Of a stretch of DNA of 64,000 bases, positions 20 through 49,297 are shown in pieces. Below the pieces are notes generated by a model. It searched no databases. It saw nothing but the letters and a program-made list of their open reading frames with translations, and was not told the origin of the DNA. The stretch covers positions 7,222,743 to 7,286,742 of the forward strand of contig CAJINV010000002.1 of assembly GCA_905178155.1 (NCBI GenBank), read 5' to 3'. The position numbers and the translations under genes were made by a program. The DNA comes from Amoebophrya sp. A120 (Eukaryota; Protista; Dinoflagellata). Position 1 is the first letter of the stretch. Each line of letters opens with the position of its first letter.

Positions 20-3000
20 TTGGAGAAGTACTTGACTGGTGGGTTGAAAAAGGGATCGCAGGTTTTGGTATGTAGAAAGAAAAAGCCGCCGAAGGTGGAG
101 GGCGGGAACTACCTTGGATTTTCGCCTCACTTGAAGAAGTATTTCGAAGCGAATGTGAAGAGACCCATTGGGTCCGAGCTGTGGGAAAAGTTCGCACTGG
201 AGTCCGGCGTCATTTCTGAAAGTCGTCCCGAAGGAGATGCAGCAGCATCGAGAGCAGTGGCCGCCAAAACAGATCTTCCGGAGAAGAAAAAAGAACCTAT
301 GGATGAAAGATCAATAAAAAAGGAGGAGGACACGCCGCCCAGAGCTTCTGCTGCGAAAAAAACTTCCGAGGACGCGAGTCAGAAGAAGCAAGACGGCGCT
401 GCTAGTACGACGGAAAATCAACAAGCCGCCACTTGTGCCGCAATAGTCACCGCGAGACGACAGGGTCGACAAACTGGCGTCGCTCTCAGCAAAACTCCGG
501 ACACGAGTGAGCAAGACCGCCACCTCTTTCTGCAACAGCAAATGGCGTTACGAAAGGCGGCGAAAGCCAAACGCTTATCCTCCCGTCTGATCGATTCGGA
601 ATCCGCGGAAGCTTTTGAGCGGAGGCGGAAGCGACAGCGGAGGTTGCAGCGGATGTTTTTGGAACAACACGAAGTTCAGAATAGCGAATCTCTCGGGACC
701 AAATTCCTCGCTGGGTTGAGTTCTCTCTTCGGAGTAGGAGAGACTGAGCACCAGCAACAGCCTACATTCAAGACATTAGAGCAAGCGAAGGCACTTGCCA
801 AATCCAAAGACAAAGCAGAACGGCACAAACACCACACCCATCTGCAGTTCGGGCAGAACCAAGAATCCAGGGACCCCCTGGTGTTGGACGACAAGGGCTT
901 CATCCTGGAACCTCCCGCCGGAAACCCGGAGCCGGTGCGCGTGTTGCCGCATTTGCTTTCCGAGGAGATGGCGTATTTGAAAATCGTGCTCGAGTGGATT
1001 GAATTGATCAAACAAACCACGATAAAACCCAGTAGCACTTTCAGCTTCAACGTCGGAGGATCTTCATCCGCGACGGCTTCATCCCTCAGCGACTACACGA
1101 TCCCAAGACCCACCGCAGCGACCATGCTGGCGAATTTTGGCAGCTCCCTTCTGAACACCATCACGGGGCGCGAGGATTTGTCGCAGCACGAGGGTGTCAG
1201 TGCGAAATTCCTCGAGTTGGAGAAGATGAGCGACGTCGCGCTTGAAAAAAGATTGCAGCGAAATGTGGAGGAGAATGCAGATTTGGTTGGGGACACAGGA
1301 AGAGGTCAAAATGCAGAAGATAATCGGTTCGATGGTGTCACAACTTCTTCATCCACGTTCTCCACAAACTTTGCACTTTTGCAGAAGAAGTTTTTCCCTG
1401 AGTACGTGGAGTACACTAAGCGCATCGCGATGCAGAAGTACTTGCGGCTGGCGAAGATCCGCACCCAGTATTTGTCCACCCTCTCCTACACCTGTCGCAA
1501 CACGATTTCCCACGAATTTGCGCTCGATGTTGAAGTTCATTTTCCGGAAACTGCGGAACTGGTGGAGATACAAACGCGGAAAAGGGTTTTGTCCGCATTG
1601 AAACTGATGGAAATCGAGTCCCACAACAGCCACTTGGCAACAGAATCTGCGCACCAGGCTGCAGTTGCACACGAAGAAGTTGCAGTCGACAATGAAGATG
1701 AAAATGGCGGAGAAGCAGGTGGAAAAGCCAAGCCCACCATCACGGCGTTTGCGATCGGCCTGCAATTGACCCGGATCAACGAAAAGGGAGAGCTAATCGA
1801 CCCGGTGCAGCGCCGGCGTAGATTCGTGAAGAAGCGGTGGAAGAAAGCGTTTAAGAAGGTGGTCCTTCTACTGAAAGTCACCACCCAGTTCCGTTCCCTG
1901 ATCCCAGTGTATGGTAAGCGCTCAACTGCTTTCCGGGTGAAGCAGCTGAGTCAGTTTCTGATGAAGAGCAGAGGTTTCATCGAGGATTTCTCCATGGGAG
2001 CAGGGACATCAACAACAATGCAGAACAACTATCAAAGGCATCAACTTCGCGACGAGCGGCAGATGGCGAAAGCGAGGCTGTTCGCCATTCGGGATTTTTT
2101 AGAACCATCCGTTGCCGTCGACGCGGAAAGACCACAAGAGGCAGCGCTGTTGTTTCCTGGCGACAGCAACAAACCGCAAACCGTCCGAGAAACAGCAGCA
2201 GAAACGAGGCGGAAAATCGCGTTTAAGCAGGGCCGGGGGCTGATTGAGCTGCGGCAGCTGGTACCACTGGTACCCTGGGACGATTCTATGGTCGCAGGGA
2301 AAACCAAACAAGAACCGAAGAAATTGTCCGGCCGACCGGTGAAGAAGCGAGATAGCAATGCTGCAAAGGAACAGCTTTCCGCTTTCACTTACGCGACTTT
2401 GTGGGAAGAAAGCACATCGGTAACTACAAGCGCAGGATCTACTTCTCGAGCTGGCGCGACGTCTCAGCAGCAGTTTAAAAACCACATAGCCTTGCTTCAA
2501 CCTGGGCAGTTAGCGTACAAAGAGTTGGCCTACATCTTGCACGACCCGAGTTTGAATTCCTTAATTCTCCCGGTGAAAGCGCAAGTTGCGAAAACGGAGC
2601 TGCAAACTGCTTTGTTGGGTCCTGCTGGTGCTGCTCAAAATGGAGAAGACAGTCCCGATCTTATCGACAATCTGTCAAATAACAACTACACCAATCACCC
2701 CTACCGGAGACGCTTTCAGCAGAACATGCAGAAAAACCAGAATTTGCAGGCCCTCCAGCAGGCGGCGAAGTATCCAAGAAAAAAACTGTGTAACTGTAAC
2801 TTCGCAGCAAGAACAGCATCACAAATTCGTTTTGCATTACAGGCAAAACCTGTCATGTGCAGCTAGTACATGGAAACACGTATGAAAGTTGCCTATCACG
2901 TACATCCAGCATAACAAGCGTATACGGTTTTGCATTTCCTGCATCACAGACTTACACTTACACAGTTTTTTTCTTGCATACGAAGCTGGAGGTTTTGAAT

Positions 3001-4024
3001 ATCAAGGAGGAGAACAAATTTCTAGAAAAGGTCCTCCACATATGGGAGTGTCAGGTTTGAAATCGACAAAGTTGAAATAATTTGTCATGCATAAAATGGA
3101 TGCCAGTTAGACCTGCAGTCTGTAGTCGGTGCATGACAAATTTTCCCGGTCCTGGAAGCCAGTCTGTCATGCGGTTTAGGGCAAAAGAGCTGCCTTCTGT
3201 CATGCTAGTCAGCAGCCCAACTTTTGACCCTTACCAGGACTATCATCTGCCTCCCTTGCGTCCTCTGCAATAGAGTCACTTTTTGTATCGCATTTTATGC
3301 ATTACAAGTTATTTCAACTTTGTCGATTTCAACTCTGACACATCCATACCACAGAGACCGAACGGAACTGCTGCTCGGCTGCACGAACGCGGATTTCGGC
3401 GGGGGAGCTGCATCCGGTTTGTCAGCACCTGTTCCGAGGATGATTTTACACGGAAATAATCCCAACAACGCGGAAATCTGGGGTAGCAACAACCCCTGGG
3501 TTTTGCAGCCGGTTTCCGCGGGAAGAAAGTTGTCTCGGTCGCCGAGCCCAATCGACTTTCAAACCCGGAACCGGCGCGGCAGCCGGAGTCCGTCGAACCA
3601 CTTCGGGAGCAGAAGTCGGAGTCCTCCCGGCTTGGTCAGGTCGCCCAGAATAAATCACGATCGGTTGATCGGTAGTCGGAGTCGGTCGCCGAATTTGATG
3701 CTGTCCTCTCGGCGTGGTCAAGTCCTGGAGCACGTCCCAGACGATGTGTTGATTCCGCAGTTGAGTCGCGGGAATTCGCCATCCCCAGTGATCGGGCGGA
3801 GCAGGAGCGTCAGTCGCGGCGGCAGAAGTGCGTCGGCAGGTAAGCGAGTTCGGTTTAACCCGAGTGACGCTGCAGTCGAGCCGGACAAACTGCGGATTAC
3901 GGTAAAGCAACCGACGGGGGAGAGATTCAACGAAAGAGCTTTTTTGAGGCACTTGCGGAAAAGCGCTCGAGGAGAAGCGGGGCCGGATGGAGAGGTTTTG
4001 TTTCACAATGTAAGAAGGATCTAG
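20..4024 (+). CDS. Large hypothetical protein, probably 5'-truncated by the window; exons ~20-2770, 2986-3040, 3354-4024
   Basis: The 948-aa ORF continues in frame once the elements at 2771 and 3041 (each plus one TSD) are removed: QAAK|LEVLNIKEENKFLEKVLH|RDRTELLLG. C-terminus is RS/SP-rich. No family recognised. Confidence 0.7.
2771..2980. mobile_element. TIR introner, family A (210 bp)
   Basis: TIRs tatccaagaaaaaaactgtgtaactgtaa / ttacacttacacagtttttttcttgcata; TSD cgaag at 2766-2770 and 2981-2985. Confidence 0.92.
3041..3348. mobile_element. TIR introner, family B (308 bp)
   Basis: Long TIR tatgggagtgtcaggtttgaaatcgacaaagttgaaataa / ttatttcaactttgtcgatttcaactctgacacatccata; TSD ccaca at 3036-3040 and 3349-3353. 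Confidence 0.95.
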
Positions 4025-48700: not shown

Positions 48701-49297
48701 TCTTCTGACCAAGCACGAGGAGCTCCTGAAGCTGCAGGAAGACTGTGGCTGCTTCATCAACCACGAAGAATGGGAGAAGTATCACGAGAAAAAAGTGTCA
48801 CAGTTACACGTTTGTTGGAGTTTCCGCATCACAGATTTTCCCTGTGTGGTAGAAAAACTTGTAATGCGAAGATCATAAGGGAAAACAGGAAGGAAACGAG
48901 GCTCCCAAGCATTTCCTGCATGAGAGAGGTTGTCTGTGTTGCCGGTCTTGCAACGCAATGTGTAACTGTAACACTTTTTTCTTGCGATAAGAAGCAGTGC
49001 CAGCCCGTGGGTTTCGCGAACGAGGCCTTCAACTGGGCCAGTGGGAAGATCAACTTCGCCCAGCTGTGCGCCAGCTCGGAGCTACAGGAGGGAGTGCTGA
49101 TTCGCTGCCTGAAGTCCTTGGAAGAGCTGCTGCGCAAGATCAAGACGATCGCGTGCGACCTGAAGATGGTCAGCCTAGAGCTACTGGCGCTCGACGCCAT
49201 ACAGATGGTGAAGAGGGACGTGGTTTTCCTCCCCTCGTTGTACTACGAAAACATTGACCTCACTGCACGTGGCGAAAGTGGTCGAGATGAGGAGTAG
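42768..49297 (+). CDS. SKI2: SKI2-like DExH RNA helicase; exons 42768-44529, 44644-48779, 48995-49297
   Basis: [66 protein letters not shown], and a C-terminal DSHCT-like segment WASG...EGVLIRC...KRDVVF. Confidence 0.9.
44530..44638. mobile_element. Minimal TIR introner (109 bp)
   Basis: Perfect 30-bp TIR tatccaggaaaaaacacccatccccatcca / tggatggggatgggtgttttttcctggata; TSD gaggc. Confidence 0.96.
48780..48989. mobile_element. TIR introner, family A-like (210 bp)
   Basis: tatcacgagaaaaaagtgtcacagttacac / tgtaactgtaacacttttttcttgcgata; TSD agaag; removal gives [10 protein letters not shown]. Confidence 0.93.

Follow-up and report, generated by a model that had tools for sequence, protein, structure and literature searches.

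In this study, we analyzed a 64,000-nt stretch of DNA from the dinoflagellate Amoebophrya sp. A120 (contig CAJINV010000002.1, positions 7,222,743 to 7,286,742 of the forward strand; hereafter the window) and its introners, which are elements with TAT…ATA ends that are removed from RNA as introns. Families of these elements with dissimilar cores of the terminal inverted repeats (TIRs) carry arrays of one internal word, YTGT[C/G/A]ATGC, which is likely the double-stranded DNA binding site of a shared, probably integrase-like transposase that moves these non-autonomous elements; we assign this reading a probability of roughly 0.55.

Elements were called blind to the motif, from inverted ends and a 5-bp target site duplication (TSD), which yielded 15 TAT…ATA elements; the same relaxed threshold gave 1 and 4 calls on two shuffled windows. 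The 15 elements sum to 3,606 bp, i.e., 5.6% of the window, and the 5-bp TSD is exact in 14 of them. Exact TGT[C/G/A]ATGC sites number 55 in the window, and 50 of these lie inside the elements (13.9 per kb within versus 0.083 per kb outside, binomial p 9e-57), with 1 to 6 exact copies in every element; dinucleotide shuffles of the same elements held a mean of 0.87 sites and a maximum of 5 (500 shuffles). The position before TGT was a pyrimidine in all 50 element sites (T in 33, C in 17) and position -2 was T in 34 of them, so the site approximates RAYYTGTVATGCW. In addition, TGTCATGC was the top 8-mer among nine family representatives, with 16 copies in seven of the nine and none in 60 kb of background. 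A sequence-only reading of this DNA had proposed the motif by eye: its 16 example sites all exist, each within 1 nt of where it was placed, and the concentration in introners, the scarcity elsewhere and the two copies in a minimal 109-bp element at 44530-44638 were borne out as well, while the outcome of no enrichment over background, which it had allowed for, did not hold. The elements, together with two old introns of similar build, are listed below; splice joints come from contigs of X3 to X6, which were taken as RNA by guess and which also skip GT-AG introns, and X1 is a DNA run.

2771..2980, introner of 210 bp, TSD CGAAG; three exact motifs (2816, 2834 and 2941, all on the minus strand); removal inferred from X5 contig 14
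3041..3348, introner of 308 bp, TSD CCACA; five motifs; removal inferred from X5 contig 14
5242..5524, old introner with a decayed TSD, relative of the 24574 family; no motif within one mismatch; terminal stem kept; spliced, skipping 288 nt (283 + 5)
5688..5895, old TAT..ATA intron; no motif; spliced, skipping 213 nt (208 + 5); family alignment z 3.0, without assignment
6662..6969, introner of 308 bp, TSD GCTGC; five motifs; spliced, skipping 313 nt
7021..7170, introner of 150 bp, TSD CGTGC; three motifs; spliced, skipping 155 nt
10038..10252, introner of 215 bp, TSD CGTAG; one exact and four one-mismatch motifs; spliced, skipping 220 nt
10332..10569, introner of 238 bp, TSD TGTAC; four motifs; spliced, skipping 243 nt
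11855..12160, ageing introner, TSD with one mismatch; one exact motif remains; aligns to family 3 of metagenome assembly JACKZZ01 (z 11.6)
15577..15726, introner of 150 bp in a CDC14-like phosphatase gene, TSD GTACG; two motifs; empty site in the paralogue near 19575
19687..19948, introner of 262 bp, TSD TGGGT; four motifs; empty site in the paralogue near 15820
24112..24412, introner of 301 bp, TSD GGGGA; four motifs
24574..24853, introner of 280 bp, TSD CAGGG; three motifs, all on the plus strand
34803..35054, introner of 252 bp, TSD TCCAG; six motifs; spliced, skipping 257 nt
40803..41109, introner of 307 bp, TSD CATTC; five motifs; spliced, skipping 312 nt
44530..44638, minimal introner of 109 bp in a DEAD-box helicase gene, TSD GAGGC; two motifs 32 bp apart, at 44563 and 44595
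48780..48989, introner of 210 bp, TSD AGAAG; two motifs

The pattern was replicated in metagenome sequence. A scan of metagenome contigs with a three-site pattern returned at least 147 stretches; among the matches listed were 145 loci, 116 of them from JACKZZ01, and the latter gave 212 unique elements, of which 77 matched the search pattern and 135 were unselected bystanders. The motif was present in 131 of the 135 unselected elements, with 374 sites or 11.8 per kb (shuffle mean 8.7 sites, maximum 13), and unmasked DNA of the JACKZZ01 loci held 0.33 sites per kb. T was shunned at the variable base, TGTTATGC having 3 sites versus 75-198 for each other base, and the recurrent variants were YTGTVTTGC (76), YTCTVATGC (60) and YTGCVATGC (44). 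TAT..ATA ends were found in 166 of 195 calls with a 5-bp TSD, and the 6-bp calls lacked a TAT..ATA class. JACKZZ01 has families in common with the window and therefore probably represents the same species or a close one rather than an independent lineage. None of the other 29 of the 145 metagenome loci gave a BLAST match to any element, and 20 loci from two viral scans, none with a TAT..ATA element, were rejected as tandem-repeat or chance matches.

All families share the end signature TAT-S-N6-AAAA (among 46 family ends, T, A and T occur in 45, 46 and 45, and A at positions 11-14 in 37-42), and 23 families merged into nine groups by weak motif-free alignment. The motif was kept in eight of these nine groups, counting the young families and the ageing 11855 element, and the groups no longer align mutually. 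Calling the families otherwise unrelated, as had been done before, is thus overstated, although the dissimilarity of their TIR cores stands; since the families probably share ancestry, the motif is to be seen as an inherited, constrained site instead of a convergent one.

Conservation of the motif columns exceeded that of their surroundings. In the window comparison, where sites were defined in one copy and identity was read in its relative, 147 of 161 motif bases were identical versus 216 of 335 flanking bases, 307 of 513 other bases and 12 of 23 variable bases. Between the 3041 and 40803 elements, all 35 motif bases were kept versus 136 of 208 neighbouring bases, with the variable base drifting. 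Identity to consensus in six pattern-unselected families was 0.877 at motif, 0.898 at TIR and 0.710 at other columns, and nearest-neighbour identity across 147 unselected young copies was 0.96 for the motif versus 0.78 elsewhere. A motif left over neutrally from common ancestry and from TIR symmetry, i.e., shared ancestry with no excess conservation, would fit the common ends and weak alignments of the families, as well as the two motif copies within the 58-bp TIR of the 308-bp family; the intact bases between 3041 and 40803 and the persistence of the motif across groups that no longer align make it highly improbable, and we regard it as largely refuted.

A check of motif spacing, suggested along with the motif itself, revealed set spacings across 22 family consensuses. 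Of 37 same-strand neighbour pairs, 19 had a spacing of 31-33 bp and 8 a spacing of 18-20 bp, and the null for same-strand spacing of 30-34 bp had a mean of 3.4 and a maximum of 12 (5,000 draws). A spacing of 16-17 bp was seen for 11 of 21 divergent pairs and one of 14-16 bp for 7 of 22 convergent pairs, while the first inward site lay 32-34 bp from the end in 12 of 22 ends and 41-44 bp in 8 of 22. The 10-bp step and the 32-bp repeat suggest helical phasing. The claim of a common protein-binding site is therefore supported indirectly, by excess conservation, fixed spacing across families and the lack of strand bias described below, though not as regards the identity of the binder.

Young elements are removed from RNA as introns, each as the element plus 5 nt with non-canonical ends. 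X3 and X5 contigs lacked the element and exactly 5 nt at 6662, 7021, 10038 and 10332, and X3-X6 contigs did so at 34803 and 40803; thus, the 11 elements compared with RNA contigs gave six direct joints and two inferred ones (2771 and 3041, from one X5 contig), and no joint was seen in these contigs for 11855, 44530 and 48780. None of these joints occurred among the matches listed for the DNA run X1, whose summed contig depth, which is not a copy number, rises from ~45 to tens of thousands across elements and points to many element copies. Sense-oriented TSDs showed no GT/AG preference. In addition, three old introns (5242, 5688 and 9591; 698 bp in all) were spliced exactly and held no site within one mismatch, where the density in young elements predicts ~10 exact sites. 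Over its full length, the 5242 intron can be aligned with the 24574 family (z 5.5), its motif columns have decayed to 0.58 (other columns 0.49), its terminal stem persists (fold z -3.6), and bases beyond the TIR now pair and lengthen the stem. For the old introns with decayed duplications at 5241-5528, 5687-5899 and 9590-9801, the cut fits 1 nt upstream of TAT and 4 nt past the element end, a fit that is unique at 5241 and one of two possible fits at 5687 and 9590.

Sense-strand motif counts were 221 versus 207, with no strand bias, and insertion orientations were 22:24 in family 0 and 18:17 in family 1. The elements at 3041 and 6662, 96% identical and in opposite orientation, appear to be removed from RNA in both orientations. 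The continued splicing of motif-free old introns, together with the absence of strand bias, implies that the motif probably serves as a transposition signal at the DNA level, not as a splice signal, and a dedicated excision factor, which had been proposed as one possible binder, is disfavoured by the precise splicing of old introns without the motif. A role as an RNA signal for a non-canonical splicing machinery, or as internal stems needed for excision, would agree with the presence of the motif in every young spliced element, with U1 reported as missing in Amoebophrya (the portion of PMC7789003 covered) and with the depletion of private changes at motif columns; moreover, 102 of 138 elements carry both motif orientations, so that a reader of RNA would in most cases have a site to recognize. 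Nevertheless, the remaining 36 of 138 carry a single orientation of either kind (15 versus 21), pairing needs no identical sequence across families, and the two motifs of the 44530 element are unpaired in its centroid fold, which together with the three motif-free introns makes this role improbable.

Under the preferred reading, a protein supplied in trans would bind the motif array cooperatively on DNA and pair the element ends, and only copies with intact arrays would give rise to new copies. After insertion the array would decay, and the paired ends would suffice for splicing as an RNA stem, so that every element would have two codes, one for mobility (the motif) and one for RNA excision (the terminal stem). 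An integrase-like transposase is likely, since the Ginger-like family 38, a published A120 introner family, also has a 5-bp TSD and TA/TA termini and is likewise a TIR element serving as an intron (Gozashti et al., 2025; PMC12130899, 56 of 58 A120 rows of its dataset). By annotation, this family is 808 bp with Copia/Gypsy integrase-like open reading frames (ORFs), whereas window-type elements are 109-330 bp and non-coding. More tentatively, one protein, possibly a host-domesticated integrase, may read the phased 8-bp array in thousands of introners whose TIR cores diverge freely, while a separate, sequence-independent terminal stem lets another machine excise from 1 nt before TAT to 4 nt after ATA; we hold this fuller version to be possible but doubtful.

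Several observations weigh against a shared transposase at the motif. Neither a transposase nor an autonomous element was found in the ~0.33 Mb examined, and none of six long TAT..ATA candidates looked autonomous or showed an integrase-like ORF between its TIRs. The spacing counts are not independent, the families being related, and the strand calls cover 138 of 212 elements and are noisy, being consistent at 23 of 32 loci. Evidence for decay comes from three window introns, one of them assigned to a family, and from 20 partly mis-bounded copies. In these 20 copies, compared by TSD age and biased to motif-poor neighbours, identity fell from 0.96 to 0.88 at the motif and from 0.78 to 0.74 elsewhere, which leans toward neutral motif decay after insertion, with boundary errors present. 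Private changes were fewer at motif columns (18.9 versus 32.7 per 1,000 cells), the private/shared test giving p 0.049 on sampled copies too diverged for a decisive outcome, so some post-insertion constraint on the motif is possible. The covered portion of the A120 genome paper reports no A120 transposase and speaks against transposases as the general means of mobilisation (Farhat et al., 2021; PMC7789003). Furthermore, the young TAT..ATA element at L052:2779-2889, which is near-palindromic, 111 bp long, flanked by a 5-bp TSD and nested in a 308-bp-family element, lacks the motif. Finally, at TIR positions ~17-28 a family-specific hexamer is tandemly doubled (lag 6) in 20 of 46 ends versus 2 of 46 in the control; this doublet is a possible family-specific binding site, judged from sequence, and could mean several transposases plus a host factor at the common motif.

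That last arrangement, in which a host-encoded architectural protein, transcription factor or domesticated transposase binds the motif on DNA and aids or licenses transposition while the hexamer doublets specify the catalytic partner, accommodates a common motif beside family-specific TIRs, the lack of a reported A120 transposase and the young motif-free element, and the DNA-level evidence for a shared transposase fits it equally well. We nevertheless consider it unlikely, as the motif hardly occurs in intergenic or exonic DNA of the host (0.083 per kb), unlike a typical host regulatory site. ApiAP2 proteins recognize the word TGCATGCA with its GCATG core, which the motif resembles only with C at the variable base (198 of 374 sites); an ApiAP2 site was rejected, as G or A at that base breaks the core in 176 of 374 sites.

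Other features of the loci were noted as well. The six long candidates proved to be nested or captured DNA or to span two elements; four ORFs of L034, the only ones scanned among long elements, had no Pfam match, and extra internal (captured or nested) DNA was seen in the introners L034:505-1608, L055:808-1438, L060:1622-2243 and L061:1255-1671. Three tandem CDC14-like phosphatase genes at 15054-25050 each bear different introner insertions; the first two are ~97% identical, and different introners in such similar copies imply gain after duplication. A 39-bp tandem duplication at 24313-24390 doubles one motif of the 24112 element. Partnerless ends resembling the 2771-family TIR lie at 12370-12391 and 59644-59660, and a GC-rich intergenic island (up to 66%) at 26600-28200 has no introner called. 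Four GT-AG introns gave no significant alignment to any family (z up to 2.6); the GT-AG intron at 30617-30781, which has a single exact motif, at 30696, together with a faint inverted end, is possibly a very old introner, its alignment not being significant.

Subterminal arrays of transposase-binding sites are found in the ends of Ac/Ds, En/Spm, Mu and Tn7. In the covered portion of PMC1636448, Lemi1 binds subterminal repeats of Emigrant, a miniature inverted-repeat transposable element. The likeness lies in a short conserved word repeated inside the ends, with cooperative transposase binding there and predicted here; the difference is that here one word is common to over 20 families whose TIR cores differ, spans the whole element with orientation-specific spacing, and belongs to elements that are also introns. 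By their sequence, the window elements match the published A120 introners, whose inverted repeats, as given in the covered portion of PMC7789003, consist of TAT, seven variable nt and an A run, a form also found here; non-canonical splicing and a mean length of 240 nt (3,606/15 here, A120 non-canonical introns there) agree as well, and the 5-bp TSDs here fall within the 3-5 nt of the direct repeats there. IS3EU/GingerRoot and IS481EU DDE transposons have TA..TA or TNT..AYA termini (PMC10045372, portion covered), and TA..TA is seen here; TSDs in these groups usually measure 6 bp, or about 4, 15 or 25 bp, as against 5 bp here. Filing the elements under either group was rejected on TSD length and on the lack of a TAT..ATA class among the 6-bp calls. 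The covered text of PMC7789003, with section 16 and the searched supplement, figures aside, holds no match on either strand to an internal common motif. Likewise, no report of a phased word uniting these families appeared in the literature searched, including the covered portions of PMC7789003, PMC12130899, PMC9860276, PMC12166617 and PMC12005148, with figures and some supplements outside the scope. Such introners, like subterminal binding repeats, are already known, and the single phased word that unites families is apparently new.

According to the covered portion of the genome paper, introner movement and splicing were both left open (PMC7789003). Our analysis separates a mobility signal from a splicing signal, by which both questions become directly testable, and the spaced DNA word offers a bait for the mobilising protein and a signature for an autonomous parent. 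It also suggests that the A120 families with unknown TIRs are one system rather than many invasions, and the two-code design, if true, would explain explosive, self-renewing intron gain.

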